A stretch of DNA of 64,000 nt from Candidatus Nomurabacteria bacterium (lineage in GTDB: Bacteria > Patescibacteriota > Minisyncoccia > Phycocordibacterales > JAACPR01), in contig JACKFZ010000007.1 of NCBI GenBank assembly GCA_020632215.1, positions 1,187-65,186 of the forward strand, read 5' to 3'. The notes beneath the pieces are model-generated. The model did no database searches, was not told the DNA's origin, and saw only the letters and a program-made list of their open reading frames with translations. Below, piece by piece: positions 6,409 through 57,943 of the stretch (positions within the stretch are counted from its first letter, which is position 1; every line of letters starts with the position of its first letter). The translations under genes were made by a program, and so were the position numbers.

Positions 6409-6424
6409 AAGTGTTGTAAAATGT

Positions 6425-7080
6425 GGTAGTACCTGATGATTGCTCTTTTATTATTTTAATGAAAGGGAGGAAAGTCCGAACACTTGTCCCGTGGCCCAGC
6501 GAAGCTGGGTTTTACGGGACAGAAGGGTAGCGCCCTAAATTTTCGCAAAACGAAAAAAGGGACCAATCACTTTAGTGATTTTGGTGGTAATACCCGTCGC
6601 CAGTGCTACGCACTGGGAATTCGAAATCAGAATGTCGAAATCCGAAAAAATATTAAGTCTTAAAATCTAAACAAATTGTTTATAATTTAAGATTTAGAAA
6701 TTAAAATTTGTTTCGAATTTCGTTTTTAGAATTTCGTGCTTCCGATGCGTAGTATTGGTAGAGGTGCGAGCAGAGACGCCACAATCGAAAGAAAGTGGCA
6801 CCCTTAACGGGGTGAGTACTATGGAAACATAGGTGCTAAATCACATACAAAAATTTCAATTTTTATATGTGATTGCACGATCAGATTTTTCTTTGAAAAA
6901 TCTGATTTAGTGAAACGGCAAAATCCTTACCTAAGTGCAAGACCGTGCCGCGTAAAGATGGCTTCGCCATCCACCCGGAGAGTCGCTAGAACCAAATAGT
7001 AATATTTGGTCCAGATAAATAATCATCTAGGATAGAGAAGCTCTATCTGATACAGAATTCGGCTTATAGGTACAAGCGAA
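6425..7080 (+). ncRNA. rnpB: RNase P RNA, bacterial type A, with an AT-rich expansion hairpin
   Basis: P4 5' strand 'GGAGGAAAGTCCGAAC' at ~6467. 'GTGCCGCGTAAAGATGGCTTCGCCATCCACCCGGAGAGTCGCTAGAACCAAATAG' matches E. coli 'GUGGCACGGUAAACUCCACCCGGAGCAAGGCCAAAUAGG'. P4 3' strand 'ACAGAATTCGGCTTAT' at ~7051. P1 pairing 'GTACCT'(6429)/'AGGTAC'(7068). GC-rich island in AT-rich DNA. Confidence 0.8.
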
Positions 7081-7097
7081 AATATGAGAAAAACCAC

Positions 7098-11229: not shown

Positions 11230-11329
11230 ATTAATAAATAATGAATAATTTAAAATTCTTTTTTCTTTATTAAAAATTTAATATTTCTTTAACGAAATTT
11301 TATCTCAAAGATTTATAATTAACATTAAG

Positions 11330-11428
11330 CCTAGTACCAGAGCAAAGCTCGGTACTAGATTAGTCCCGAAATGTCCACAAACCAGAACGAAGTTTGGTTC
11401 GGGTCTGGTTCGGGAGGGGAAGGGGAGC
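11330..11428. repeat. copy 1 of a ~110-bp dispersed hairpin-rich repeat family (also at 35794, 53604, 57751)
   Basis: 'CTAGTACCAGAGCAAAGCTCGGTACTAG ATTAGTCCCGAA...CCAGAACGAAGTTTGGTTCGGGTCTGGTTCGGGAGGGGAAGGGG' shares 'ATTAGTCCCGAA', 'TGGTTCGGG' and paired hairpins with the other copies. Confidence 0.5.
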
Positions 11429-11671
11429 TCCTATTTCTGAAATTTAAGTATTGACTGTCTGATTATTTTATTTAATAACATTATAAAGAAGCATTCCCCA
11501 GAAGTTTATTTTATGGTAGATTTGTGATGTTCGAGGCTATACTCCCTAGACAAGACCCCTGGGGAGACCTTGCGGCCAATCCGAACAAAGGTGCACCCTC
11601 ATACCACAGTTACCTTGTTGCCTCTGGCGACACGAAAGGTTGAGGGTGCACCAGCTTTTATTTTATATGTT

Positions 11672-15468: not shown

Positions 15469-15719
15469 CTCCCTAAATGATTGCTACGCAATCATCGGGC
15501 ACAGCAGTTATTAGAGCATTCACAGTTAGTATAAAAGTTGTTATAAATAAATTATGTCAGGATAGCTCAGTTCCCGCCAGAGGCGGACAGGGTCCGAGCA
15601 TTCACAGTTAGTATAAAAGTTGTTATAAATAAATTATGTCAGGATAGCTCAGTTCCCGCCAGAGGCGGACAGGGTCCGAGCATTCACAGTTAGTATAAAA
15701 GTTGTTATAAATAAATTAT
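15469..15719 (+). repeat. three tandem partial pseudo-copies of the tRNA-Phe 5' region (unit 82 bp; one divergent then two identical)
   Basis: 'GTCAGGATAGCTCAGTTCCCGCCAGAGGCGGACAGGGTCCGAGCATTCACAGTTAGTATAAAAGTTGTTATAAATAAATTAT' at 15556 and 15638, plus a diverged copy at 15469; each starts with the first 17 nt of the tRNA. Confidence 0.85.
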
Positions 15720-15795
15720 GTCAGGATAGCTCAGTTGGTAGAGCATTCGCCTGAAGAGCGAAGGGTCGGCGGTTCGAGCCCGCCTCCTGACACCA
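15720..15795 (+). tRNA. tRNA-Phe (anticodon GAA), CCA encoded
   Basis: 'GTCAGGATAGCTCAGTTGGTAGAGCATTCGCCTGAAGAGCGAAGGGTCGGCGGTTCGAGCCCGCCTCCTGACACCA'. Confidence 0.85.
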
Positions 15796-20018: not shown

Positions 20019-20071
20019 ATCGTCAAATACTAGCAGAAATACGGTCTAAAATGAAGGTGGTAAGGGAGTAG

Positions 20072-20113
20072 ATAAAAAATCGCCGGGGCGGGAATGTATG
20101 ATATACATCCCGC
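20072..20113 (-). terminator. Rho-independent terminator on the minus strand at the end of the GC-rich non-coding region
   Basis: Minus strand 'GCGGGATGTATATCATACATTCCCGCCCCGGCGATTTTTT'. Confidence 0.5.
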
Positions 20114-20940
20114 ATGATCCCGGCGCAAGGTTTCAGAGTAGTTGATCCGAAAGTTGTTAAAAACTCGCATTGTGTTTCCAGAACTGGAACAATAGAAGAC
20201 CGTGCCTCTATCTGGTTTCACCCAACAATGAAAGTCACACAGTGCTTAGGCGACCTGTGGTAACGTAACTTTCTTCCCTAGGGACCCCGAAGAGTCCTTT
20301 CACACATCACCCGTCAACCTTAATATTTCAACCACAACATTACAATGAAATTAAATATTAGTCAAATAGAAAAAAAGGCGAAGAGGAGAGAGCCTTTTTG
20401 TGTGATGAGCAAGTCGAATCTCGGCGCTTCTGCCAAAGTTCCGGATTCTGGGCTCCTCTCCTCTTCGTCCCACCAAAATACTACTAAAAGTTAAATATGT
20501 CAAACAAAAAGCAAATAAAAAGAAAGGGCGCGCTCGTAATCCAGTTTGTTGTCAGCTCAGGAATCGGACCACGAGGCGCCATAAAATCTGGAGAAAAGGA
20601 GGGGTAGAGAGCACTTGCAACAGTGGAATCTTTACTACCTCCTCTTCTTTCTTTGATGTTGATAGCGCTCTGGGCCACCGCCGGGGGTAAGATTGGGTGG
20701 ATGAGCCCCATCCTGCTACCCAATCACCACACCGGCGGTGGCCTCTGAGACAACAACACAAGCCAAATCTACATTTGATTCTACATTTAACACAGAGATT
20801 GTCAAATCACAAACAAACAAAAAGAAAAGAAGGGCCGGAGCAACCCAAGGTTGGCGCGATAACAACGGGTTATCGCTTTGGAAACGTCACCAACCCTCCT
20901 GGTTCGGGTTGTCCGGCGTTCTGAGTCTAACTCTTTCTGT

Positions 20941-22209
20941 CTAAGAATTCAAACTTAAATTTCCTTCTGCTTTGATTTCTGGATTTACAACAGCTTGCTC
21001 TCTAAAACTTTTTAAATATCCAGCCATACCTATCATCACTGCATTGTCAGTTGATAGCTTTTGCTCAGGGAAAAAGACTTCGATATCTTTTTCTTCAACT
21101 AACTCTTGTAGGTTTTTTCTAATATATTGATTTGATATAACACCTCCTCCAACTATTAGATTTTTAATATCAAATTGATCTATAGCATCTGTTACTTTTT
21201 TCTTTAAAACATCGACAATAGCTTGTTCAAATTCTCTAGCAATTATTTTCTTCATATCATCAGAAATTTCTCCTAGCTCTTGAGTTTTGTATAAAACAGC
21301 AGTTTTTAATCCTGAAAAAGAAAAATCAAAGTCTTTACTATTGACCATTGGTCTTGGGAAGGAGATTTCAGAAAAAGGTAAATCTTTTTCTCTAGCTTCC
21401 TCTGCTAGCTTGGCAATTTCTGGTCCACCTGGATATGGGAGACCTAATAATCTAGCCACTTTGTCATAGGCTTCACCGACAGCATCATCTTTGGTTTGAC
21501 CTATAACTTCATATTTTCCCCATGATTTTATTAAAACTAACTCAGTATGACCGCCAGAAATAAGAAGAGCTAAGGTAGGGAAGTTGATTTTCGGATTTCG
21601 AATTTCGGATTTAGTGCTTCCTCGATTTTGATTAATCAAAATCGAGGATATGTGTCCTTCCATATGATTCACAGGTAAAAGAGGTATTTGCCAAACAATA
21701 GAAAGCGCTTTTGCAAAATTAATACCTGTCCATAGGCAAGGTTCTAGTCCAGGTCCAGATGTTACGGTAATAAGGTCAAGATCAGGTTTTTCGTGTGTTT
21801 CCAAAAAAGAAAAAAGTTTTTCAGTTAATTGAGGTTCTCTTTCCAAAAGTTTTTGGATTTCATCTGTTTTGTCATTCAAGACTTGTTCTGGGATTTCATC
21901 TGTTTTGTCATCCCGGACTTGATCCGGGATCTTGTTAGAATTACTTTCTGTTTGGAATTTGGAATTTGGAATTTGGTTTTTTGTGATTTGGAATTTGGAA
22001 TTTAATTCCTCCAAAAGGGGCACCAAATTTCTCGCATGTTCTCTTTTTGCCACAGCAGGAAAAACCCCTCCATATTCTTTGTGTATATCTATTTGAGAGT
22101 TTAAAGCTTCTGAAATAATTTCAAACTTAGGATTATCTAAATCACCTTCTGCTTCAATAATTGCTAAAGCCGTTTCATCACAAGATGTTTCTATGGATAG
22201 GATTTTCAT
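20941..22209 (-). CDS. tsaD: tRNA N6-adenosine threonylcarbamoyltransferase TsaD (Kae1/Gcp) with a ~60-aa low-complexity insertion
   Basis: 'MKILSIETSCDETALAII', 'TVTSGPGLEP', 'LLISGGHTELVL', 'FSGLKTAV' TsaD motifs; the insertion carries 'IPDQVRDDKTDE/IPEQVLNDKTDE' and 'NSKFQ' repeats. Confidence 0.85.
   Translation of the reverse strand: MKILSIETSCDETALAIIEAEGDLDNPKFEIISEALNSQIDIHKEYGGVFPAVAKREHARNLVPLLEELNSKFQITKNQIPNSKFQTESNSNKIPDQVRDDKTDEIPEQVLNDKTDEIQKLLEREPQLTEKLFSFLETHEKPDLDLITVTSGPGLEPCLWTGINFAKALSIVWQIPLLPVNHMEGHISSILINQNRGSTKSEIRNPKINFPTLALLISGGHTELVLIKSWGKYEVIGQTKDDAVGEAYDKVARLLGLPYPGGPEIAKLAEEAREKDLPFSEISFPRPMVNSKDFDFSFSGLKTAVLYKTQELGEISDDMKKIIAREFEQAIVDVLKKKVTDAIDQFDIKNLIVGGGVISNQYIRKNLQELVEEKDIEVFFPEQKLSTDNAVMIGMAGYLKSFREQAVVNPEIKAEGNLSLNS
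21856..22012. repeat. DNA-level tandem repeats inside the tsaD coding sequence
   Basis: (GGAATTT)n runs 'TTGGAATTTGGAATTTGGAATTTGG...GGAATTTGGAATTT' and a direct repeat 'GGGATTTCATCTGTTTTGTCAT' x2; contains the palindrome 'GACTTGATCCGGGATC', also seen at 35650. Confidence 0.6.
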
Positions 22210-22213
22210 TATG

Positions 22214-22287
22214 TGAGTAATACAGGACTTGAACCTGTGACCTCCACTACGTCAAAGTGGCGCTCTAGCCAACTGAGCTAATTACTC
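22214..22287 (-). tRNA. tRNA-Val (anticodon GAC)
   Basis: Reverse complement 'GAGTAATTAGCTCAGTTGGCTAGAGCGCCACTTTGACGTAGTGGAGGTCACAGGTTCAAGTCCTGTATTACTCA'; the 3' end is 4 nt from the tsaD start codon. Confidence 0.85.
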
Positions 22288-22971
22288 ATTTTGTTCGGAT
22301 ACTTTATCACAAAAGTATGCACTTAAAAACATTAATTCTCGAGATATTTGAACTCTCCCTATTCTTACCAGACAGACACCCTTATAGTGGCTGTAGGTTC
22401 TTTTTCCTAACGTTCGTTTGTCAAAAAAGGTATGTTTAAAATTATCTTTTGGTATTTTAAGCGACTTCGACCAGTATTCAGTTAGCTCCTTTTCATCTTG
22501 GTCTGATCTTAAATGTAGATCACAATAAAAATCTGTATAGTCCAAGTCATACAATTTAATTATTGATTCTATAAAAAACTTCAAGATAATGGGATTTGAA
22601 TTGCCCATACCAGTATCGCCAGTTTTAAATCCTTCCCCTAGATATAGTAGGGCAAGCGCAAGCTTTAAGACACTTTTGTCCCCCAAATGTATTTTAGTCA
22701 ATGTCTCCTTTGCTTTATCTTTTGCAATAGAAATTCTTTTTTCTTTTTCTGCAATATGCCACTCCTTTGCTTTTTCTCTTGCCTTAACCAATCCTTTTTG
22801 CCATTCTCCTTTTAACTTTTCTTTTTGTTTTTGAGTAAGTTGTATGTTTTTAAACCATCCACTTAAAGTGGACTTAGGAATGTTCAGTCTATCACTTATC
22901 TTTCTGATAGATACACCTTGCCTCCGTAAGTTAAGAGCCTTTTCTTTGCTTGAACCACTATACATTAGCAA
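22282..22971 (-). CDS. HTH-domain protein with a possible degenerate single LAGLIDADG motif
   Basis: N-terminal 'RRQGVSIRKISDRLNIPKSTLSGWF' helix-turn-helix; 'LALALLYLGEGFKTGDTG' loosely resembles LAGLIDADG; sits between tRNA-Val and tRNA-Glu. Confidence 0.3.
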   Translation of the reverse strand: MLMYSGSSKEKALNLRRQGVSIRKISDRLNIPKSTLSGWFKNIQLTQKQKEKLKGEWQKGLVKAREKAKEWHIAEKEKRISIAKDKAKETLTKIHLGDKSVLKLALALLYLGEGFKTGDTGMGNSNPIILKFFIESIIKLYDLDYTDFYCDLHLRSDQDEKELTEYWSKSLKIPKDNFKHTFFDKRTLGKRTYSHYKGVCLVRIGRVQISRELMFLSAYFCDKVSEQNE

Positions 22972-23250: not shown

Positions 23251-23273
23251 GGGGATTCCCCGTAGGGTCACCA
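23251..23273 (+). repeat. direct repeat of the tRNA-Glu 3' end (att-like), opening the cassette-like array
   Basis: 'GGGGATTCCCCGTAGGGTCACCA' shares 17 identical nt ('ATTCCCCGTAGGGTCAC') with the tRNA 3' terminus, 106 bp downstream of the gene. Confidence 0.7.
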
Positions 23274-23307
23274 TTTAGAGCGCTAGTGTGAGCGCTCGAG
23301 AAACATT

Positions 23308-24147
23308 ATGAATAAACAAGATAGAATAGAAGAATTAAAGAAAATCGGTGTAGCAAAAGAACTATACGTGCTACCTGATTTGATAGAAGATTCTAATTTT
23401 CAAAATTTATTAAATCCACAGGAAATAAATGTTCTGCAAAATCTAAAACAAAACCTTAGAACAGTTACTAATTATAGCGGTATAGTCGCTGATATAGTCT
23501 CAAAATATTATGGATATAAAATATCTAAAGACGTTAATTTAAATTCACTAGAAGAGAAAGTTAATTCGTTAGAAGGAAAGATTTCAGAAAGTAAAAAATC
23601 TCTTGAAGAAGTAGAAAATTTTGCCGAAGTGGCAAAGGGTGCTGGCGCAATGAAGTCTTATGCAAAGATTTTTAAAACTAGAGCAACAAGACATAAGGAG
23701 AAGGCGGATATTCAGTTTAAATATTATTTAATAAGTTTATTTAGTCTGCTTCTTATTACATGGATGGTTTTCTTCTTTAATGTTGTGGAGTTTAATTTTG
23801 TAAAAAATATTATAGCCGAAGATATTTTATTTAAATTTAATATAGGTATTTTTACATTCAAAATACTACTTTTGATTTTTATATTTCAAATCTCTCAATT
23901 CTTTAAGAAATCCTATAATGCAGAGAAACATTTGGAAGAAGTTTATTCAAACAGAAGTGATGTGCTTAATTCTTTACATGCTGTCTATGTATCGATTGAA
24001 AATCCTGTTGAAAAAGATAGGCTATTAAGTATAGGGGCAACTTTTGCATATGAAAGAGGTGAAACTGGTTATATAACTACAAAAGAGGGTGCTGGTGGAG
24101 ATGATGATTATATTGCAAACCTAATAAGCCGATTATTGAGTAAGTAA
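23308..24147 (+). CDS. hypothetical protein: cytoplasmic coiled-coil N-domain, two TM helices, C-domain (array unit 1)
   Basis: 279-aa ORF; hydrophobic 'YYLISLFSLLLITWMVFFF' and 'IGIFTFKILLLIFIFQI'; no recognised motif. Confidence 0.4.
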   Translation: MNKQDRIEELKKIGVAKELYVLPDLIEDSNFQNLLNPQEINVLQNLKQNLRTVTNYSGIVADIVSKYYGYKISKDVNLNSLEEKVNSLEGKISESKKSLEEVENFAEVAKGAGAMKSYAKIFKTRATRHKEKADIQFKYYLISLFSLLLITWMVFFFNVVEFNFVKNIIAEDILFKFNIGIFTFKILLLIFIFQISQFFKKSYNAEKHLEEVYSNRSDVLNSLHAVYVSIENPVEKDRLLSIGATFAYERGETGYITTKEGAGGDDDYIANLISRLLSK

Positions 24148-24281
24148 AAAATACTGCTCGAGAAGGGTCACTATGATATTGTTTAGCTATTAAAAATAGC
24201 CTTACAGACCTTAACCGACCACGGTTCCATCTCGATTCGGCTCACCATTTAGAGCGATAGTTCGAGTGCTCGATAAGTATC
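24148..24281 (+). repeat. inter-unit repeat (boundary motif plus tRNA-3'-half-like segment)
   Basis: 'GCTCGAGAAGGGTCACTATG...AGCCTTACAGACCTTAACCGACCACGGTTCCATCTCGATTCGGCTCACCATTTAGAGCGATAGTTCGAGTGCTCG'; related copies at 24950-25055 and 25330-25504. Confidence 0.6.
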
Positions 24282-24971
24282 ATGGCTGGGAAGAAACAAA
24301 AAATAGAATTCAAATTAGGTATTACTAAAAGAGGTGTTAAAGGTAAAGCAAGTTTCAATTTTGTTTTTACAGATAATGGGGATGTGTATATAACACCGAG
24401 ATTTAAAGAAAAACTATATAAGTCTACAAAAATAACACTACATCCACCAAACATAGAGTACCCTAACAATTACCAATCTTTTTCTTTTCAAAAAGATTCA
24501 ATACCTGATTTAGGAGAAAGCAAAAGACATATACAACAAACAAAGGGTGACTTTGATATAGGTCACGGTCTCCATTTCAGACAATCTATACTTATACATT
24601 CTAGTATATTAAAAAGAGCTTCAATGTTTAATGACACACAAACACATGTGGATATATATTTAGATAAAGGAGAAACAATATTGGATCTAACATTACTTTC
24701 CTCAAATAAAAAATTTAAAGGAATTCCTAATAGAAAACAGGGCTTTAAAAAACTCTTTGATGTTATCATAAAAGACTCTGTCCAATTCTGTTTGGTTTTT
24801 AAAGGTAGAAAAATTCTTTCAAAAGAGCTGCAAGAACTAGAAGAGGTATCAAAAAAAGATATCCATGATTTTGATGGAATTGTTACGATTGGCGGTAATA
24901 CAAAAAATGGATATCCTGTGATAACTTACTTGGATAAAGATTATTTAAGTGCTCGAGCGGGGTCAAAGTAA
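24282..24971 (+). CDS. hypothetical protein (array unit 2)
   Basis: 229-aa ORF, basic N-terminus; the 3' end 'GCTCGAGCGGGGTCAAAGTAA' overlaps the conserved boundary motif. Confidence 0.4.
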   Translation: MAGKKQKIEFKLGITKRGVKGKASFNFVFTDNGDVYITPRFKEKLYKSTKITLHPPNIEYPNNYQSFSFQKDSIPDLGESKRHIQQTKGDFDIGHGLHFRQSILIHSSILKRASMFNDTQTHVDIYLDKGETILDLTLLSSNKKFKGIPNRKQGFKKLFDVIIKDSVQFCLVFKGRKILSKELQELEEVSKKDIHDFDGIVTIGGNTKNGYPVITYLDKDYLSARAGSK

Positions 24972-25055
24972 TTTATAAATTCTATCTAAAATAACCTTAT
25001 GGGGCTTAATCGACTACGGTTCGAGAGGATTTGATAAATTTGATATAATTTATAG
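24972..25055 (+). repeat. inter-unit repeat
   Basis: 'AAAATAACCTTATGGGGCTTAATCGACTACGGTTCGAGAGGATTTG' is homologous to the 24190 and 25365 copies. Confidence 0.55.
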
Positions 25056-25352
25056 ATGATTTATTTATTATTGATTATAATAATTATTTTGTTGTTATAC
25101 ATAGCCTTTTTTACACCAGAAAAAAGAGAGCGACGAAACATAAGAAGGGTTCAGAAAATTTTTAATACCCCCTTACCAGAGCCACCATTATTTAAAATTG
25201 GTGATCCGAGAAATGAAACACACCCTGATGAGACGGTCACTTATGAATACCCAAGTGGAGAAAAAGGTATCAGTAATCGAAAATTGGCCACAATTATTTA
25301 TAAAATGGAGGAAAAAAATCATCCGCTCGAAAAGGGTCAAAATAATTTATAA
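25056..25352 (+). CDS. small hypothetical protein with N-terminal TM helix (array unit 3)
   Basis: 98-aa ORF; the 3' end 'GCTCGAAAAGGGTCAAAATAA' overlaps the boundary motif. Confidence 0.3.
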   Translation: MIYLLLIIIIILLLYIAFFTPEKRERRNIRRVQKIFNTPLPEPPLFKIGDPRNETHPDETVTYEYPSGEKGISNRKLATIIYKMEEKNHPLEKGQNNL

Positions 25353-25504
25353 ATTTATATTAAAATAAACCTTACAGGTCTTAATCGAGCGTGGTTCCAT
25401 CTCGATTCGGCTCACCGTGTGGCGAGCGTAGCGAGCTTTACACGGTCACCAAAACCGAGCATAGTTTATGGTACTCGAGTAAAATAAATTGTTATAATTA
25501 AAAT
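25353..25504 (+). repeat. inter-unit repeat
   Basis: 'AAACCTTACAGGTCTTAATCGAGCGTGGTTCCATCTCGATTCGGCTCACCGTGTGGCGAGCGTAGCGAGCTTTACACGGTCACC'. Confidence 0.6.
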
Positions 25505-35562: not shown

Positions 35563-35793
35563 GTGTAAATTAAAAGTGTTTATATTTTACACAATAAAAT
35601 GATGATTGTAATGGGGAGAACTTTTTTCAAGCCCGTCGTCCCAGACTTGATCCGGGATCTCGTAAGATTATTACTGAGTCTAATTATTGATAATTGATAA
35701 TTAAAGATTTTGGTCTCCCTGAAGGAGTTCCAAGCGAAGTCGATGGGCGACATTCAGGATTTTGTAAAATCACAACTGAATTCTTTTGTTATT

Positions 35794-35862
35794 AAAAATA
35801 AAAAAATAAAAAATCTATACAAAATTCCCGCCCAGGGTGGGGGCTTACCGCTTACCTCCTTA
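35794..35862. repeat. truncated copy of the dispersed repeat family (same orientation as the 57751 copy)
   Basis: 'AAAAATAAAAAAATAAAAAAT...ATTCCCGCCCAGGGTGGGGGCTTACCGCTTACCTCC' versus 57751 'AAAAAAAATAAAAAAT...ATTCCCACCCCTTATTGGGTGGGGGCTTGCCGCTTACCACTCC'. Confidence 0.5.
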
Positions 35863-35937
35863 AGCTAGATTATAACAATGTCAGATAAAGTTATGTAAAA
35901 GAAAAGTTAAAATAAAAATGAATTACTCAGAAAAACA

Positions 35938-37547: not shown

Positions 37548-37650
37548 TGGCAATAGTTATTAGACACTAGACATCAGAAAAGACACATTACTGATGTCTG
37601 AAGTCTGATGTCTGAAGTCTGATGTCTGAAGTCTGATGTCTAATAACTTA
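37548..37650. repeat. short palindromic repeat cluster of the GACATCAGA family (also at 39415 and 46415)
   Basis: 'TTATTAGACACTAGACATCAGAAAAGACACATTACTGATGTCTGAAGTCTGATGTCTGAAGTCTGATGTCTGAAGTCTGATGTCTAATAA'. Confidence 0.6.
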
Positions 37651-39414: not shown

Positions 39415-39520
39415 GGAATAATCAAATTGTATCTTAGACGTCAGATATTAGACATCAGACGTCAGGGTAGGTATTTTTCTGATATCTGATATCTAATGTC
39501 TGACCTCTGATGTCTAAACC
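39415..39520. repeat. GACATCAGA-family palindromic repeat cluster in the lepB/pth divergent intergenic region
   Basis: 'TTAGACGTCAGATATTAGACATCAGACGTCAGG...TCTGATATCTGATATCTAATGTCTGACCTCTGATGTCTAA'. Confidence 0.5.
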
Positions 39521-40142: not shown

Positions 40143-40565
40143 TATTATGATAGAATATTTTTTGGGTCTGTAATTAACTGGAAAGGAGGTATCAGAACAA
40201 TGAAGAAAAATAGTGCCTGATGAATCTCGTATCCGAACAGCATCAAAAACTGCCTTCACAGGCGATAAATAAATGAAGGTAAGTCTAGGCGTGATGGTGC
40301 TGCGATTCTCTGAAAGAATATTCCAAATCTCTGATTCCATGCGAGTAATCCAGAGGGTTGGCCTTTAATGTTCTTTTTCGTGGACTTGCTGCCACCTGAG
40401 GATTTGTGCGTTTACGGCAAGGGGCCTGACCAGTCCTTAGTGCGTTTCCTCCCCAAGATTAGGGGCTTGCACAAGGTCTAATACTCCCAACTAGTTTTCT
40501 GGTTTAGGAGTTTTTTTATTTCTTTTTTCCAATTCTTGTATTTAAATAAATTTTACATAAAAAGA

Positions 40566-40592
40566 TCCCGGCTCGGAGGCCGGGATGACTGG
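40566..40592 (-). terminator. terminator downstream of rpsA (minus strand)
   Basis: Minus 'CATCCCGGCCTCCGAGCCGGGATCTTTTTATG'; a second hairpin 'TCTTCACCGAAAGGTGGAGATTTTTT' lies at 40650-40685. Confidence 0.5.
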
Positions 40593-46414: not shown

Positions 46415-46492
46415 AGACGTTGGACATTAGGAAAAAGTTATCTACAATTTTGATATCTGATATCTGATATCTGATGTCTATTAAGTTATAAT
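46415..46492. repeat. GACATCAGA-family repeat copy
   Basis: 'TTAGACGTTGGACATTAGG...TGATATCTGATATCTGATATCTGATGTCTATTAA'. Confidence 0.5.
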
Positions 46493-53332: not shown

Positions 53333-53603
53333 ATCAGTAATGCGCCTCCTGCGCCGTTTGTTTTTTGTTTGTTTTTGAGAATTTTGAAACTCATTCCATT
53401 GTTAAGGAGCGAGTGTCTGCCCGCGATTTTACCACATAAAGTGGTCATTTGTCAAGCTAAGAATAAATAAAATATGGCTTTGTTGAGCCGTCAAAATAGG
53501 TTTAGTTTGTATAAAAGTAATATCTATGGTTTAACTACGTTTTTCATTTTTTCTTTAATATTCTTTGTATGTTTCTTGAGAATGGTTTTTATATAATCTT
53601 CAA

Positions 53604-53732
53604 TAGCCCAGAACCAAAGCATAGCTTGGTTCTGGATTAGTCCCGAACCGAACAAAGTTCTGGTTCGGGAGTGGTAAGCGGTAAGCCCCCACCCAAAAGG
53701 GCGGGAAATTTTTATTTATTTTTAAAAGTCGG
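53604..53732. repeat. full copy of the dispersed repeat family; inverted partner of the 57751 copy
   Basis: 'ATAGCCCAGAACCAAAGCATAGCTTGGTTCTGGATTAGTCCCGAACCGAACAAAGTTCTGGTTCGGGAGTGGTAAGCGGTAAGCCCCCACCCAAAAGGGCGGGAAATTTTTATTTATTTTT'. Confidence 0.65.
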
Positions 53733-53765
53733 GCAATGCTTACGCATCACCCTCTTTTATTTTCT

Positions 53766-53847
53766 GTGCCGAGGAGAGGACTTGAACCTCCATGGGTTAC
53801 CCCGCTTGCTCCTAAGGCAAGTGCGTCTACCAATTTCGCCACCTCGG
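53766..53847 (-). tRNA. tRNA-Leu (anticodon TAG)
   Basis: Reverse complement 'GCCGAGGTGGCGAAATTGGTAGACGCACTTGCCTTAGGAGCAAGCGGGGTAACCCATGGAGGTTCAAGTCCTCTCCTCGGCA'; long variable arm. Confidence 0.8.
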
Positions 53848-53918
53848 CATGTGTATAAGTGGATATACTAAACAATTTATTAAAAAATTGCTACTTATGA
53901 AATATTACATATTCCATG

Positions 53919-53992
53919 TCCGCCCAGTAGGACTTGAACCTACGACCGTTCGCTTAAGAGGCGACTGCTCTACCGGCTGAGCTATGGGCGGA
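53919..53992 (-). tRNA. tRNA-Lys (anticodon CTT)
   Basis: Reverse complement 'CCGCCCATAGCTCAGCCGGTAGAGCAGTCGCCTCTTAAGCGAACGGTCGTAGGTTCAAGTCCTACTGGGCGGA'; one non-WC pair at the top of the anticodon stem. Confidence 0.7.
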
Positions 53993-54036
53993 TATTGATT
54001 CATAACATTCTTAACCAAAATTAATAATTTTGCAAA

Positions 54037-54235
54037 TTAAAAAAATGACATGAACAAGAATAGTATCAATAAAATCAGTAGAATAAAAATAAATGTAATA
54101 ATGGAAAATCTAATAATTTTTTCTAGATCTTCTTTATTATTGGGCACATCACCTAATGATAGGGCAGAAATCACTAATGCTGTTAAGTAAGCAAGAAGTT
54201 TCTGAGTAGGATATTTTGTCACGTTCTTTTTCATT
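54037..54235 (-). CDS. possible small two-TM membrane protein
   Basis: 66 aa from 'MKKNVTKYPTQKLLAYLTALVISALSLG'; the longer track ORF extends into the repeat array and is probably artefactual. Confidence 0.25.
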
Positions 54236-54241
54236 ATAGTT

Positions 54242-54526
54242 TGTGCCCGGGGCGGGAATCGAACCCGCATCCCAGAGGGACACGCAAATATTTTATAGCA
54301 AGTCGTGCGTGTATACATGCAACCATACTATTGCTATGTGCCCGGGGCGGGAATCGAACCCGCATCCCAGAGGGACACGCAAATATTTTATAGCAAGTCG
54401 TGCGTGTATACATGCAACCATACTATTGCTATGTGCCCGGGGCGGGAATCGAACCCGCATCCCAGAGGGACACGCAAATATTTTATAGCAAGTCGTGCGT
54501 GTATACATGCAACCATACTATTGCTA
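54242..54526 (-). repeat. three tandem 95-bp pseudo-tRNA-Leu(TAA) copies
   Basis: Each unit shares the 3' 43 nt of the tRNA ('TGCCCGGGGCGGGAATCGAACCCGCATCCCAGAGGGACACG' on plus), has an anticodon loop expanded by 11 nt ('CTTGCTATAAAATATTTG') and an unrelated 5' part; period exactly 95 bp. Confidence 0.85.
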
Positions 54527-54528
54527 TG

Positions 54529-54609
54529 TGCCCGGGGCGGGAATCGAACCCGCATCCCAGAGGGACACGATTTTAAGTCGTGCGTGTATACCAATTCCAC
54601 CACCCGGGC
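54529..54609 (-). tRNA. tRNA-Leu (anticodon TAA)
   Basis: Reverse complement 'GCCCGGGTGGTGGAATTGGTATACACGCACGACTTAAAATCGTGTCCCTCTGGGATGCGGGTTCGATTCCCGCCCCGGGCA'. Confidence 0.8.
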
Positions 54610-54710
54610 AATTGTGTTATAAAATAGATTTATAACACAATATCCAATTAGTAGAAAGCGGTCTGTAGCTATTTCTATTAACTACCGACTGATGACTACT
54701 GACTAGATTG

Positions 54711-54784
54711 AGGTCTAGGCCGGGTTCGAACCGGCGCATAACGGTTTTGCAGACCGTCGCGTTAACCAACTTCGCCACTAGACC
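54711..54784 (-). tRNA. tRNA-Cys (anticodon GCA), U73 discriminator
   Basis: Reverse complement 'GGTCTAGTGGCGAAGTTGGTTAACGCGACGGTCTGCAAAACCGTTATGCGCCGGTTCGAACCCGGCCTAGACCT'. Confidence 0.8.
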
Positions 54785-54790
54785 ACGATT

Positions 54791-55300
54791 TTAAATAATT
54801 CGTTTTACTTTATCTGTGATTTTTTCTGGTTTAAGTTTAAAGTAATTATCAAAATGGTCAAATTTTCTTTTGAGAAAGAAACCATCTCTTTTATCTTTAT
54901 AAAGCCAACAGAATAATTTAATTGATTGGGAACTATCATAATATAGCCTATAAGCTCTTGAATATTTCTTGATGTTTGCTTTTATACCAGCATTTTCTTC
55001 CAATTTTGCTCTCAATATCTTTAAGAATTCGTATCTTCCGCAAGTGAATATAATTCTTAATCTTTTTATCTTATCTTCTAGTTTTTCTATATAAACACAC
55101 CCATTCCCATCAAAGTACCCTAAAACAAAACTATTTAGATATTTTTTAGGAATATCTGGGAATAACATTGTTGTGGATTTGTTCGGATATAAACCAATTT
55201 GTTGTAACGAATTATATATATCTTTGTCTCCAATTCTCAATAAATAAAGTTTCTTGTGATTATTATATTGTGATGAAGAGATTTTATGCTCTGAACTCAA
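54791..55300 (-). CDS. free-standing LAGLIDADG-family homing endonuclease-like protein
   Basis: 'NSFVLGYFDGNGCVYIEK' LAGLIDADG-type motif; 169 aa (single-motif size); 6 bp from tRNA-Cys. Confidence 0.55.
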   Translation of the reverse strand: MSSEHKISSSQYNNHKKLYLLRIGDKDIYNSLQQIGLYPNKSTTMLFPDIPKKYLNSFVLGYFDGNGCVYIEKLEDKIKRLRIIFTCGRYEFLKILRAKLEENAGIKANIKKYSRAYRLYYDSSQSIKLFCWLYKDKRDGFFLKRKFDHFDNYFKLKPEKITDKVKRII

Positions 55301-55515
55301 GAATAGTCTGATGATTTCTATTCGATCATAATCGGTACTTGTTACTCTTAAATATTAGCTCTGATATAAGAAGAATCTTCTAAACTTCCGTCTGCATAGA
55401 GATATCCTAAGACATAAGCCATCTCATAACTCCATTTTTTAAACGAGTCTTTATTGATCTTATACTTTATCCCCACACTAATATTCTAAGTGGTCTAATA
55501 TTATGCTGCAAATCG

Positions 55516-55842
55516 CTATAAACTTCTAGAGATTTCGTCTAGATGTTGTCTAGATTTTTCCCCATTGTCTAAATGAAAAGTCACAAAAGGGATACGAGAA
55601 AGTTTTGATTTTTCTTTCAAATATTCCTTGGCATTCTTTTGATTTCTTTCTAAAAAATCTAGGGCGGCCACTTCTTCATTTTCAGGAAAAACTGTAACAA
55701 AAAAACGAGCTTTTTTTAAGTCTTTAGATAGATCAATGTTTGTGACTGTAATCATTGAAGTTTTATTTGATTCAGTTTGAATAAATTGGCTAATATACTT
55801 TTTCAATTCATCCATCATTTTTTCTCGTTTGTATTCAATCAT
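55516..55842 (-). CDS. rbfA: ribosome-binding factor A
   Basis: 108 aa; 'ITVTNIDLSKDLKKARFFVTVF' resembles the RbfA KH-like core; immediately downstream of infB. Confidence 0.75.
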   Translation of the reverse strand: MIEYKREKMMDELKKYISQFIQTESNKTSMITVTNIDLSKDLKKARFFVTVFPENEEVAALDFLERNQKNAKEYLKEKSKLSRIPFVTFHLDNGEKSRQHLDEISRSL

Positions 55843-55843
55843 T

Positions 55844-57343
55844 TTAAACTATCTTTTTTTCAAATGCTTCGATATGATCACTTTCTGCTAATTCGACTTT
55901 TGTCTCGATTGCTGCACCAAATTCGTTACCTTCTGTTACTTCCGATACTTCAACTTTTTGTGATTGTAGACCTTTTACCATACCGGTTCCAATTTCTTCA
56001 TTTCGTCGCATAATTTTTATCTTTTCTTTGACTTTCAAAATTCCTTCTTTGACTTTTCCTCCAATAACTTGAGTATTTTTTGTTTTATTAAAAATCCTTA
56101 AAATCTTTGCTGAACCTGTAATCTCTTCGGTTTCGATTCGGGGTCTTCTTTCTTCTGCAATATTTTTTAAATAATCACTAACATCGTAAATGACATCAAA
56201 TATTTTTATATCCAATCCTTCTCTTTCTTTTATAACTTCAGCTTGAGAATCTGCATCAACATGGAAGCCAATAATAATTGTGCCTTCATGAGAGCTAGCT
56301 CTTTTTGCATTGGCTTCGCTAATATTTCCAGTGCCTTGAGTGATGATGTTAAAATAAACTCCGTCAACATTTATTTTTCTAATTTCGTGAACGATGGCGT
56401 CACCACTTCCGGCCACATCAGTTTTTATAATTAAAGGAATAGCTAAACCGTTTTCATTACCAATGACATGAGAAACGCCACCTTTCTTGGGTTTATTTTC
56501 TCTATTTTCTTGGCAGTAAGCCTCAGCTTCTTTTTTGTTCTCAAAAGTTTGCACCAGACTTCCTGTTTCTGGCATGTCACTCCAACCAGAAATTAGTATT
56601 GGATTTGAGAAAGTAGCTGATTCTATTTTGTCATTTTTGTCATTTTCAATTGATCGAACAGGAGAAAAAACACAGTCGCTAGCTAAAACTTCGCCAACAT
56701 GTAGTGTCCCGTCTTTGATAACAATTGTTGCGGAGATACCTTTTTTCATATCTTTGTGTGCTTCTATAACAATACCTTCGGCTTTTTTATTTGGGTTTCC
56801 TTTTAGTTCTTCAAGTTCAACCGCTAGTAATATAAGATCAAGCAATTCATCAACATTTTGTCCTGTTTTAGCTGAGATCTCTGCGTAAGGAATATCGCCA
56901 CCTAACCCTTCGAGATATATTTCGTTTTCTATTAGACTGGTTTGTGTTTGGGGAATATTTGCTTTTGGTGAATCGATTTTGTTGATAGCAATGACAAAAG
57001 GTTTACCAGATTTTTTTATAACCTCGTAAGCCTCTAACGTTTGTGGCTTAACTCCATCTTCAGCAGATACAATCAAAACAGCGATATCGGCCACGCTCGT
57101 ACCTTTTGATCTCATGCTTCCAAAAGCTTCATGGCCTGGGGTGTCTAGAAAGGTGATAGTTTTTTCGCCATTTTCACTTTGGTGGGCGACTTCGTATGCA
57201 CCAATGTGTTGAGTAATACCACCACTTTCTTTGGCAGTAATATTAGATTTCCTAATGTAGTCGATAAGTGTGGATTTACCATGATCTATATGACCCATAA
57301 CCACTACTACAGGAGGCCGTTCTTGAAGAGTTTCCTTTGTCAT
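55844..57343 (-). CDS. infB: translation initiation factor IF-2, short form lacking N-terminal domains
   Basis: 'VVVVMGHIDHGKSTLIDYIR', 'DTPGHEAF', 'NKID'; 499 aa only; no nusA upstream. Confidence 0.9.
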   Translation of the reverse strand: MTKETLQERPPVVVVMGHIDHGKSTLIDYIRKSNITAKESGGITQHIGAYEVAHQSENGEKTITFLDTPGHEAFGSMRSKGTSVADIAVLIVSAEDGVKPQTLEAYEVIKKSGKPFVIAINKIDSPKANIPQTQTSLIENEIYLEGLGGDIPYAEISAKTGQNVDELLDLILLAVELEELKGNPNKKAEGIVIEAHKDMKKGISATIVIKDGTLHVGEVLASDCVFSPVRSIENDKNDKIESATFSNPILISGWSDMPETGSLVQTFENKKEAEAYCQENRENKPKKGGVSHVIGNENGLAIPLIIKTDVAGSGDAIVHEIRKINVDGVYFNIITQGTGNISEANAKRASSHEGTIIIGFHVDADSQAEVIKEREGLDIKIFDVIYDVSDYLKNIAEERRPRIETEEITGSAKILRIFNKTKNTQVIGGKVKEGILKVKEKIKIMRRNEEIGTGMVKGLQSQKVEVSEVTEGNEFGAAIETKVELAESDHIEAFEKKIV

Positions 57344-57750
57344 AGGGAGTAGTTAACCATAAAAAAACTAAAAATACAAAGGTGATTTCGTTAATCCATC
57401 GTCTTCCTGCCGCGTCAGACGCGGTCAGGATCTCGTTTAACTTTAGGTACTAATTTTAATTTAAATGATAAAATTACAGATGAAATTACTCTAAAAAAAG
57501 TTTTTAATTTTAATTTAAAGACATCTCATTTTGTTTTGTTTATAAGTTAATGTTCTTATTTTTTATAAGAGGAAGGAGAAAGATAGCTTTAGAAAGTCGG
57601 ATATTTTCGGGGGAGATGGAGTGAAATAATCCAACAACGTCTTTTGTTTCCGTATAGTGCTGTAACTTTCAGAACTCATGTGCCCACGGAAAGTCTAAGA
57701 CCTAGGCTCCTGTGGGTTATTCTTTTTTATAGTGGGTTATTCTTTTTGAT

Positions 57751-57873
57751 AAAAAAAATAAAAAATTTGCACAATATTCCCACCCCTTATTGGGTGGGGG
57801 CTTGCCGCTTACCACTCCCGAACCAGAGCAAAGGTCGGTTCGGGACTAATCCAGAACTAAGCTCCGCTTTAGT
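57751..57873. repeat. full copy of the dispersed repeat family, inverted relative to the 53604 copy
   Basis: Its reverse complement 'CTAGCCCAGAACTAAAGCGGAGCTTAGTTCTGGATTAGTCCCGAACCGACCTTTGCTCTGGTTCGGGAGTGGTAAGCGGCAAGCCCCCACCCAATAAGGGGTGGG' aligns at about 85% with 53604-53720. Confidence 0.65.
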
Positions 57874-57943
57874 TCTGGGCTAGTCTGAGCATAACATATT
57901 CATTCTCAAGAAACATAAAAGAAAAGTTAAAGAAAAAATGAAA

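Follow-up and report, generated by a model that had tools for sequence, protein, structure and literature searches.

A scattered, hairpin-rich intergenic repeat of mosaic build in a Nomurabacteria-like genome of the candidate phyla radiation

What are the two inverted copies of a hairpin-rich sequence that stand on either side of the infB region in a 64,000-nt stretch (the window) of a Nomurabacteria-like genome? A sequence-only reading had proposed that they could mediate inversion of the enclosed segment, or else mark the ends of a composite element, and that the repeat might be transcribed as an RNA. We find a scattered repeat that is non-coding, intergenic, lineage-specific and mosaic, and consider it best explained as a REP/REPIN/BIME-like intergenic repeat of this lineage (probability about 0.62), not as a DNA switch or a gene-carrying transposon.

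The unit is built in two layers, a module Y of about 120 nt that carries an insert X of 62 nt. Module Y runs from a T-rich left arm through a variable block with a TATAAT-like box and a conserved GAG(T)GGTAAGCGGYAAGCCCCCACCC with a small hairpin to a T-rich tail; X consists of H1 and H2, related imperfect palindromes some 28 nt long with one bulged base each, linked by ATTAGT. Copies A and B comprise Y and X, copy C is an older, diverged version of the same, and copy D is Y alone.

53542..53724, plus strand: copy A, full unit (Y with insert X); repeat search, BLAST and segment identity counts
53542..53584, plus strand: copy A, T-rich left arm ('P-left') TTTCATTTTTTCTTTAATATTCTTTGTATGTTTCTTGAGAATG; 41/43 identical to B, also in D
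53585..53606, plus strand: copy A, poorly conserved block with TATAAT box, ending in TAG before X; 8/19 identical to B over 53585-53603
53607..53668, plus strand: copy A, insert X, 62 nt; folding and covariance model
53607-53634, plus strand: copy A, hairpin H1, followed by the linker ATTAGT
53641-53668, plus strand: copy A, hairpin H2, imperfect palindrome of about 28 nt with one bulged base
53669..53705, plus strand: copy A, conserved block GAGTGGTAAGCGGTAAGCCCCCACCC and hairpin H3 (CCCACCC-AAAA-GGGCGGG); 24/25 identical to B, 22-mer identical in D
53706..53724, plus strand: copy A, T-rich tail; from the sequence
57751..57943, minus strand: copy B, full unit (Y with X); repeat search and BLAST, matched base for base by Logan contig L003
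57818..57879, minus strand: copy B, insert X (H1-linker-H2), 62 nt; covariance model (95.8 bits) and folding
11277..11445, plus strand: copy C, older, diverged unit between murJ and lepA; BLAST, identical in two Logan assemblies
11330..11413, plus strand: copy C, insert X, 84 nt; covariance model (78.9 bits)
35794..35922, minus strand: copy D, module Y without X; BLAST, alignment and 22-mer match

The repeat search returned an inverted pair at 53604-53701 and 57785-57882 (98 nt, 88% complementary) and a second one just outside it at 53542-53584 and 57901-57943 (43 nt, 88%; 93% with one gap by BLAST), and together these give an A/B inverted repeat of about 185 nt (53542-53724 against 57943-57751). 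The inverted pair described in the sequence-only reading is therefore real and its identity of about 85% holds (139/164 over 53542-53705), but the length of 110-130 nt given there is too short, the full repeat including a poorly conserved 19-nt middle block. The further copies named there were also recovered, C at 11330-11428 in the orientation of A and a truncated D at 35794-35862 in that of B, except that D also carries the left arm, to about 35922; the sequence has all the hairpins and the GGTAAGCGGTAAGCCCCCACCC block exactly as quoted. This 22-mer occurs three times in the window at up to three mismatches, against 0.00 expected. A covariance model of the two-hairpin core, run on the window, detected A (100.5 bits), B and C only, with the next best score below 9 bits, and neither the model nor BLAST revealed further copies in the 64 kb. 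Copies B, C and D are reproduced by independent assemblies. Searched at gathering and at permissive thresholds, Rfam has no family like the units, no conserved ORF is present (small ORFs vary from copy to copy), and no terminal inverted repeats or target duplications were seen at the copies.

All four copies occupy spacers. Copy A lies between the promoter region of a gene for a 411-aa membrane protein and the ancestral terminator of a tRNA cluster, antisense to local transcription. Copy B starts immediately 3' of the DUF4446 stop codon, sense to local transcription and about 400 nt upstream of infB. The arms of copy C, left and right, resemble Y only weakly, and copy D has the terminator of a sua5/tsaC-like gene on one side and ftsA on the other.

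The bracketed segment and its flanks were compared with relatives.

53766..57343, minus strand: bracketed block in ancestral gene order and orientation; tRNA and ORF annotation, synteny
53725..53765, minus strand: ancestral hairpin with T-run, terminator-like and not derived from the repeat, just downstream of tRNA-Leu(tag); kept in the closest relative
57344..57750, minus strand: remainder of the expanded DUF4446-infB spacer; spacer comparison with the relative

The block holds infB, rbfA, a LAGLIDADG ORF, tRNA-Cys, tRNA-Leu(taa), a tandem array (95 nt x 3.5, partial tRNA-Leu copies), tRNA-Lys and tRNA-Leu(tag), in agreement with the content, four tRNAs included, read from the sequence before. 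In 75 of 80 distant relatives, rbfA directly follows infB; DUF4446 is directly upstream of infB on the same strand in all 46 in which it is detectable, and an aminotransferase gene divergently upstream in 69/69; the DUF4446-infB spacer has an estimated median of about 33 nt. A relative with an infB 61% identical (L096) has DUF4446-infB-rbfA-tRNA Cys/Leu(taa)/Lys/Leu(tag) in the order of the window, and its next genes, for pilins, a solute-binding protein, a methyltransferase and gyrA, match the window exactly. Gene order within the block and on either side of it is colinear with that of relatives, and DUF4446 is in place in 46/46; the block is therefore ancestral and in its ancestral orientation.

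Both sites are without a copy in the closest relative found (contigs L095 and L099 of the same sample; its infB is 83% identical), and the covariance model finds nothing there. The DUF4446-infB spacer of this relative measures 69 nt against 600 nt here, and the two share only the last ~25 nt before the infB ATG. The remaining spacer in the window contains a 20-nt x2 repeat (57712-57751) and about 270 nt without assignment; a second hairpin family has one copy in the DUF4446-infB spacer, at about 57400-57436. On the other side, homology of L099 to the window ends at 53723 (L099 1-110 corresponds to window 53832-53723, 91%); this relative keeps the terminator of tRNA-Leu and the 411-aa ORF's promoter, and the stretch between them is unrelated. 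A and B thus sit in adjacent spacers in opposite orientation and therefore bracket the infB-rbfA-tRNA block. Since the block and its flanks are ancestral and unrearranged and the closest relative is without copies, the bracketing is a by-product of two insertions or duplications, and does not delimit a functional unit.

The same comparison bears on the proposal that A and B are the ends of a composite mobile element that brought in the tRNAs, LAGLIDADG, rbfA and infB. Inverted repeats at both ends and a homing-endonuclease gene inside would suit such an element, but relatives without the repeats have infB-rbfA-tRNA(Cys, Leu, Lys, Leu) and the genes outside in this very order and orientation. 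Nothing but the LAGLIDADG ORF and the 95-nt tandem array is lineage-specific, each as a separate insertion within the block, and no transposase was found among the window ORFs scanned. Synteny refutes the composite element.

We regard as highly improbable an inversion of the 4.2-kb infB-rbfA-tRNA segment through recombination, homologous or site-specific, of A with B, even though some 185 nt at about 85% identity stand inverted 4.1 kb apart and several short-read assemblies break within both copies. The break points do not lie where a recombinant junction of A x B would be expected, and the one resolved junction, on L003 from an independent assembly, runs from DUF4446 through copy B into B's own inner flank, the reference configuration. 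A and B are identical over at most 23 nt at a stretch, the window ORFs scanned include no invertase or recombinase gene, and the segment is in ancestral orientation relative to both flanks. Invertible segments such as hin, fim and the shufflons likewise have inverted repeats around a few kb, but there the repeats are short and exact and here they are long and imperfect, and the cargo here, ancestral and essential, consists of housekeeping genes and offers neither a promoter nor a variable gene that could be switched. At most, the A/B pair may be a weak substrate for rare homologous recombination.

Within the unit, conservation is sharply uneven. Between A and B the left arm (41/43), the H1 arms (12/13 and 11/12), the linker (7/7), the outer arms of H2 (19/19) and the GGTAAGCGG block (24/25) are well kept, and the variable block (8/19), the H1 loop (1/3) and the inner part of H2 (4/9) are poorly kept. 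The two H1-arm differences form one compensatory pair. In copy C, H1 has three compensatory pair changes and H2 has an 11-nt insertion plus a duplicated TCTGGTTCGG(G). Among the three copies with X, 3/12 pairs of H1 and 4/24 of H1 and H2 together changed on both sides, and 94.4% of cells are paired as compared to 44-49% when the partner is slid by one column either way. Judged from these alignments, the predicted stems are conserved or changed in a compensatory way and the loops are scrambled, which bears out the earlier description of a dispersed hairpin-rich family; such changes in a palindrome can, however, have a neutral origin through hairpin-templated repair. As DNA, the insert of copy A has a predicted fold of -20.1 kcal/mol (z -8.4).

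The insert also shows clean presence and absence. The junction in copy D, TTAAG|GAGG (35859|35858), is without X and equals the flanks of X in copy C. To the left, X is flanked by TTAAG in C, as in the empty site of D, and by ATAG and CTAG in A and B (n=3 X copies). Slippage at an unstable palindrome could just as well have deleted X from D.

Such a loss is part of an unlikely alternative in which the units are plain segmental duplications of AT-rich spacer DNA, made by recombination or gene conversion without dedicated mobility, with stems kept by hairpin-templated repair and not by selection. Only four copies were seen in the 64-kb window, A and B are both the nearest to each other and the most similar, and the absence of a transposase among the window ORFs scanned and of visible terminal inverted repeats or target duplications fits as well; the genome has other local duplications, the perfect tandem partial-tRNA arrays. 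On the other hand, near-perfect blocks beside scrambled loops within one unit argue for constraint over recent neutral copying, and X in the strongly diverged Y context of copy C still keeps the linker GATTAGTCCCGAA and CTGGTTCGGGAG exactly. Moreover, in several samples the short-read assemblies are interrupted within H1 of A and B, even though the longest run common to these two copies is 23 nt, a hint of further copies elsewhere.

A further alternative is a small RNA or leader, module Y being a small transcription unit that has spread to several sites and X either carried along with it or belonging to the RNA. The T-rich arm and TATAAT-like box would then serve as promoter, H3 with its U-rich tail as terminator, and the conserved single-stranded GGUAAGCGGUAAGCCCCCACCC as a seed or protein-binding site. 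A TATAAT/TATGCT box does lie 6-18 nt upstream of the structured part in all four copies, preceded by TGT in B and D, and by eye a candidate weak promoter (TTAACT/TTAATA-17-GAGAAT) can be seen in the conserved left arm. Of all parts, the GGTAAGCGG block is conserved best, and the predicted folds leave most of it unpaired; H3 is followed by a T-run in A and D, and D begins right after the canonical terminator of the upstream gene, like an independent unit. Against this, a consensus scan gave no promoter-like or terminator-like site at the repeats, and the block that bears the TATAAT is the least conserved part (8/19). The third-hairpin variation reported earlier is present, the reverse strand reading CCCGCCC..GGGTGGG in A and D versus CCCACCC..GGGTGGG in B. 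The RNA strand suggested by it depends on a single H3 position, G.U on that strand and A.C on the other in A and D, but copy C has G.U pairs on the other strand, and the strong folds predicted for DNA or RNA have equal energies on both strands and hence no strand preference. On the forward strand, the A.C mismatch interrupts H3 in A and D, and in D this hairpin is unable to close, its loop being 1 nt. Copy A as a small RNA would be antisense to a tRNA gene, no complementary target was found in the window, and no Rfam family matches. We therefore consider a small RNA or leader rather improbable.

The preferred reading, an intergenic repeat of the REP/REPIN/BIME kind, has counterparts in known systems. 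REP sequences and REPINs with their RAYTs in Pseudomonas and Enterobacteria (PMC3116915, PMC3337134), where REPINs are defined and precise doublet excision is described, are short imperfect palindromes in extragenic space, as here. Shared features further include a doublet of two related hairpins with a short spacer, stems conserved or compensated with free loops, no target-site duplication, clean presence or absence of the doublet (X missing from D at the junction of C), and dispersal in both orientations relative to transcription. Unlike REPINs, which number tens to hundreds, there are three doublets in these 64 kb; sequence similarity is neither expected nor seen, and whether H1 and H2 are inverted as in REPINs is not resolvable by sequence. 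Classical REPINs also lack a second repeated module, whereas the doublet here is embedded in Y. In this respect the bacterial interspersed mosaic elements (BIMEs) of E. coli and the pneumococcal BOX elements are closer: they are mosaics of modules (here Y with X, Y alone and an expanded X), lie between co-directional genes or after gene ends, and form stable stem-loops able to act on mRNA ends, matched here by predicted folds. They belong to a different phylum and differ in sequence, and the comparison covers build and position. Finally, mini-elements derived from IS200/IS605 are short, carry at either end an imperfect hairpin that has an extrahelical base, and insert without duplication beside a short conserved word (compare TTAAG in C and the empty site of D). 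The hairpins here are terminal, not subterminal, the flanking word varies (ATAG and CTAG in A and B), and no TnpA or TnpB was seen in the window.

We suggest that X most likely acts in the manner of a REP doublet (REPIN) or of a palindromic mini-element derived from IS200/IS605. Such an element would be non-autonomous, its hairpins forming in single-stranded DNA and being recognised in trans by an enzyme of the HUH/Y1 superfamily (PMC6006769) encoded elsewhere in the genome, and its movement would leave no target-site duplication. Mobilisation of this type would account for stems and bulges being conserved, loops being free and X being cleanly present or absent; no HUH/Y1 transposase or RAYT, and no recombinase, invertase or other transposase gene, is found among the window ORFs scanned (64 kb). 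Units of Y and X may then have spread through duplication or gene conversion.

The family appears from sequence searches to be restricted to the lineage of this Paceibacteria/'Nomurabacteria' genome: GTDB representative genomes contain 0 exact matches, viral contigs 0, JGI metagenomes only two weak pattern matches, and the loci of relatives (1.19 Mb) no copies. After insertion into a spacer, the hairpins probably become part of the transcripts of adjoining genes. Sense orientation between co-directional genes is found for copies B, C and D, and there, like REP, BIME and BOX elements, they may serve as stem-loops at 3' ends or between cistrons, with an influence on mRNA stability or read-through.

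A repeat search of the window, which is gene-dense with a G+C content of about 35% and about 16% spacer DNA, returned an inverted pair of 98 nt at 88% identity (53604-53701 and 57785-57882) and, directly outside it, a second inverted pair of 43 nt (53542-53584 and 57901-57943). As the two pairs adjoin, the repeat is about 185 nt long, and a diverged block of 19 nt lies at its centre. The sequence-only reading had put copies A and B at about 85% identity, and the count bears this out (139 of 164 positions over 53542-53705, longest identical run 23 nt) for a unit longer than the one it described. The hairpins and the 22-mer it quoted are present in the sequence as given, and its two further copies, C (from 11330) and D (from 35794), both exist. 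The four copies occupy unrelated loci, all in spacers between co-directional genes, three in sense and one (A) in antisense orientation relative to their neighbours:

53542-53724, plus strand: copy A, in the spacer between the tRNA cluster and a 411-aa ORF, antisense orientation
57943-57751, minus strand: copy B, in the spacer between DUF4446 and infB, sense orientation
about 11277-11445, plus strand: copy C, with its two-hairpin insert X at 11330-11413, in the spacer between murJ and lepA, sense orientation
35922-35794, minus strand: copy D, truncated, in the spacer between a sua5-like gene and ftsA, sense orientation

A covariance model of the two-hairpin core, run with filters off, recovered A, B and C at 100.5, 95.8 and 78.9 bits, with everything else in the window below 9 bits, and neither this model nor BLAST with short words found a further copy there. 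Logan assemblies of other sequencing runs reproduce B, C and D base for base, so these copies are not an assembly artefact. The repeat observation is correct and far beyond chance.

Read in the direction of copy A, the unit runs from a 43-nt T-rich left arm through a variable block of about 19 nt carrying a TATAAT/TATGCT box to hairpin H1, an ATTAGT linker and hairpin H2, followed by the block GAG(T)GGTAAGCGGYAAGCCCCCACCC, which contains a small hairpin, H3, and then by a T-rich tail. H1 and H2 are 28-nt imperfect palindromes, each with one bulged base that is kept, and they are related to one another and lie 6 nt apart in all three copies that carry them (A, B and C). Between A and B, the left arm (41/43), the linker (7/7), the outer arms of H2 (19/19) and the GGTAAGCGG block (24/25) are well kept, while the variable block (8/19), the H1 loop (1/3) and the inner part of H2 (4/9) are poorly kept; the H1 arms agree at 12/13 and 11/12 positions, and both changes belong to one compensatory pair. 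Across A, B and C, 94.4% of the stem cells are paired, a one-column slide of the partners lowers this to 44-49%, and in four pairs both sides have changed. Folding of the core is strong on both strands, whether as DNA or as RNA, and therefore favours neither. The proposal that variation in the H3 stem hints at a transcribed strand turns on a single G.U versus A.C position common to A and D; G.U pairs in copy C are on the other strand, which makes the strand of any transcript ambiguous. No copy has an Rfam match at the gathering threshold or at E≤10, nor in the window-wide search at E≤0.05. We regard a family of small-RNA or leader genes as an unlikely account of the units. A coding reading was rejected: no ORF is conserved across the copies, the reverse-strand ORFs of 30-79 aa that cross X in A and B have their frame broken in C, Shine-Dalgarno sequences are absent, and forward-strand ORFs differ from copy to copy. 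A spurious 79-aa ORF spanning copy B has no database record.

Copy D lacks H1, linker and H2 but keeps left arm, TATAAT box, GGTAAGCGG block, H3 and tail. The junctions were read directly off the sequences, as MAFFT aligns the left part of D poorly. D passes from TTATAATCTAGCTTAAG straight into GAGGTAAGCGG; in C, X is preceded by TTATAATTAACATTAAG and followed by GAGGGGAAGG; and in A and B it stands between (A/C)TAG and GAGTGGTAAGCGG. D thus reads TTAAG-GAGG where C reads TTAAG-X-GAGG, a comparison of paralogous copies in which a slippage deletion would look alike. From the D and C junctions, the 62-nt X appears to be a discrete module inside Y, the unit of left arm, conserved block and tail, present or absent without duplication or footprint. 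Because X sits at the same place in Y and their similarity is the highest, A and B descend from a single Y+X unit; C, with its expanded H2, is an older Y+X. The module sets consequently vary (A and B, Y+X; D, Y alone; C, an enlarged X in a diverged Y), and the 64 kb holds three doublets and one doublet-free unit. No direct repeats that could represent a target-site duplication flank A, B or D, and the whole unit has no terminal inverted repeats, since one and the same strand is T-rich at both of its ends. That the units are passive duplicates, with stems kept by hairpin-templated repair, is in our estimate improbable.

The sequence-only reading had further suggested that A and B, which bracket the infB-rbfA-tRNA(Cys, Leu, Lys, Leu) block in inverted orientation, might mark the ends of a composite element. 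Comparison of gene order speaks against this. Among the GTDB species representatives, the best infB relatives are Paceibacteria/Parcubacteria MAGs of ≤53% identity. In a set of 80 distant relatives, rbfA directly follows infB in 75; DUF4446, wherever it could be detected (46 relatives), precedes infB on the same strand; and a class-V aminotransferase gene sits upstream in divergent orientation in 69 of 69. For the DUF4446-infB spacer, the median estimate is about 33 nt in the relatives versus 600 nt in the window. In the relative L096 (infB 61% identity) the order is DUF4446-infB-rbfA-tRNA-Cys-tRNA-Leu(taa)-tRNA-Lys-tRNA-Leu(tag), continuing into pilin genes, a solute-binding protein gene, a methyltransferase gene and gyrA, which is the order of the window on both sides of the bracket. 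The closest relative found (Logan run SRR32414324; infB 83%, ftsA 88% identity) has tRNA-Cys directly after rbfA and a DUF4446-infB spacer of 69 nt, of which the last ~25 nt only (TTTTTATGGTTAACTACTyCCT-ATG) are common to the window. It keeps the terminator hairpin of tRNA-Leu(tag) and the promoter of the homologue of the 411-aa ORF, the 155 nt between them being unrelated to copy A, and the covariance model found no X in its contigs; at the site of copy D, its contig L098 starts 306 nt upstream of ftsA, inside repetitive sequence of its own. With block and both flanks colinear in relatives, the block is ancestral and stands in ancestral orientation to both flanks, which excludes a composite element as well as a fixed inversion. 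Moreover, A and B are non-coding and supply no transposase for a mobile unit, and the supposed cargo is in place in relatives without the repeats. A and B are two lineage-specific insertions that flank an ancestral block, and the bracketing is incidental.

Nor does anything support the related idea of a recombinational switch, in which the A/B pair would flip the block. The reference orientation, which is the ancestral one, is the only one seen; an independent assembly (L003) is in the reference state, joining DUF4446, the complete copy B and B's own inner flank in one contig; the longest identical run is the 23 nt mentioned; and a Pfam scan of 30 window ORFs found no recombinase, invertase, transposase or HUH/Y1 domain, while the neighbours scanned on either side gave no recombinase domain. 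A rare RecA-type inversion in a subpopulation is conceivable. As candidate recombinases, the 411-aa ORF (no Pfam match; on inspection a membrane-anchored coiled-coil protein) and a 190-aa ORF (which reads as a membrane protein) were rejected, and 20 further window ORFs carry housekeeping or unknown domains save one. This 229-aa ORF (22282-22971, minus strand), which adjoins tRNA-Val and has an N-terminal homeodomain-like HTH_23 domain (E 1.4e-05), is the sole window ORF hinting at a mobile-element protein; HTH_23 domains are found in some transposases, and the ORF may be what is left of a transposase, or encode a regulator.

Contigs of three samples end at one base 12 nt into H1 of B (3' ends of L001, L002 and L004), and contigs of two samples at one base in H1 of A (5' ends of L005 and L006), whereas contigs always run on through C and D. 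The positions fit neither an A x B recombinant junction nor a flipped hairpin. The breaks could arise from further near-identical copies elsewhere in the genome, from population heterogeneity or from loss of coverage at hairpins; their location inside H1 of A and B hints at more copies. In practice, the repeats break short-read assemblies of the host at fixed points, and mis-assembly or rare inversion could occur at the inverted pair, which encloses essential genes.

Beyond the window, an exact scan with the 22-mer gave no match in the GTDB representative genomes, a set to which the source MAG does not belong, and an exact-pattern scan of viral contigs likewise gave none. Scanning JGI metagenomes with GATTAGTCCCGAAN{10,30}GGTTCGGG produced two weak matches, one a chance match inside an ORF and the other a single hairpin lying upstream of rpmI in a different organism. 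The covariance model detected no family member in 1.19 Mb around infB of the 80 relatives, and neither the family nor an analogous dispersed family was found in this sequence or in about 23 kb of the closest relative. The repeat family is lineage-specific. A role as DNA-uptake sequence was also considered and dropped: GGTTCKGG occurs 13 times versus 1.5 expected, with 8 of the 13 inside the repeats and the rest patternless.

Taken as a whole, the repeat fits a new lineage-specific member of the class of extragenic palindromic mosaic repeats, given its extragenic bulged palindromes, the doublet of related hairpins, constrained stems with free loops, the apparently clean presence or absence of the doublet, the lack of whole-unit terminal inverted repeats and target duplications, modular variation, occurrence in both orientations and lineage specificity. 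Like REPs and REPINs, which are short imperfect palindromes found extragenically only, H1 and H2 lie in spacers. A REPIN consists of two REPs in inverted orientation with a short spacer, a doublet inserted or excised cleanly without target duplication, and REP/REPIN-RAYT systems comprise a cognate, usually REP-flanked RAYT gene (HUH/Y1 transposase) and tens to hundreds of copies per genome (PMC3337134, PMC3116915). Direct and inverted alignments of H1 with H2 score alike, and it is the asymmetry in arm length and bulge (13/12 versus 12/13) alone that suggests inversion. X is best modelled on a REP doublet or an IS200/IS605-derived palindromic mini-element, which would have been moved as single-stranded DNA by an HUH/Y1 enzyme (PMC6006769); we do not claim REPIN-RAYT membership for it, since it is ambiguous how H1 and H2 are oriented to each other and both the enzyme search and the copy count covered the 64 kb alone. 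For the mosaic Y+X unit, we take the nearest counterpart to be a BIME or BOX element, as a functional analogy and not a homology, with modules combined in variable sets between copies as in A to D. The repeat differs from MITEs such as Correia in having neither terminal inverted repeats nor target-site duplication, and from site-specific invertible switches in having no adjacent recombinase domain and a single observed orientation. By analogy, the hairpins might act on neighbouring transcripts as 3'-end or intercistronic stem-loops. Less likely still than the small-RNA account is its stronger form, in which the units would be functional RNA genes or leaders and not selfish DNA: a multi-copy small-RNA family of a candidate-phyla-radiation bacterium, with a conserved, single-stranded GGUAAGCGGUAAGCCCCCACCC seed, recently set beside the essential infB, lepA and ftsA, with the REPIN-like insert as a modular stabiliser. 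In a bolder variant, the A/B pair could let the infB-tRNA block flip now and then in part of the population.

Several other features of the window's spacers were recorded alongside the mosaic repeat:

21907-21931, minus strand; 35635-35659, minus strand; 40564-40589, plus strand: second dispersed hairpin family; a diverged copy at about 57400-57436, minus strand, upstream of infB
54242-54569: perfect tandem array, 95 nt x 3.5, 100% identical, partial tRNA-Leu(taa) (3' part) plus spacer
15514-15736: perfect tandem array, 82 nt x 2.7, 100% identical, partial tRNA-Phe (5' part) plus spacer
54791-55300, minus strand: free-standing LAGLIDADG_3 ORF of 169 aa with a 215-nt spacer, between rbfA and tRNA-Cys
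6424-7082, plus strand: candidate bacterial RNase P RNA (class A), 52.6 bits versus a gathering threshold of 100, E 2.7e-13
20019-20940: spacer between tsaD and leuS (both minus strand), 922 nt, 46% G+C in a 35% genome

The second family, GATCCCGG-loop-CCGGGAYGAC, has three exact pattern matches versus none expected; on the coding strand of tsaD, ftsA and infB, its minus-strand copies precede the likely gene starts by about 60-100 nt, and the Logan contigs L089 and L090 both start right at the infB copy. Both partial-tRNA arrays abut their intact tRNA gene, and L096 has 46 nt alone between tRNA-Leu(taa) and tRNA-Lys. The LAGLIDADG_3 ORF is absent from L095, L096 and L097, where tRNA-Cys directly follows rbfA, and a homologue lies downstream of rbfA in L020. 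Immediately inside copy B, a 20-nt direct repeat occurs twice (57712-57751; GTGGGTTATTCTTTTTGATA, plus strand), part of the ~530 nt added to the DUF4446-infB spacer in the host lineage. At 659 nt for a 367-position model, the candidate RNase P RNA would carry large insertions. The tsaD/leuS spacer has many GC hairpins and no Rfam match at E≤0.05, and could hold an unrecognised structured RNA or leader. At 23265-25416, repeated spacer blocks of 44-59 nt and 80-85% identity (three families, D7, D9 and D10) precede successive ORFs of unknown function, DUF6161 among them, in a layout like a small cassette-like gene array, and tandem repeats of a CTGATGT-type heptamer occur in three spacers (37591-37641, 39478-39517 and 46449-46488).

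The mosaic repeat implies no new kind of mechanism, and its practical consequences are modest. Candidate-phyla-radiation genomes are usually called small and streamlined; here several spacers of one conserved neighbourhood are each enlarged by a different lineage-specific sequence, namely the mosaic hairpin repeat, the second hairpin family, the free-standing LAGLIDADG gene and the perfect tandem partial-tRNA arrays, and the closest relative is without all of them at the same sites. If the full genome were to hold a cognate HUH/Y1 enzyme, REPIN-type systems would be extended to this phylum.
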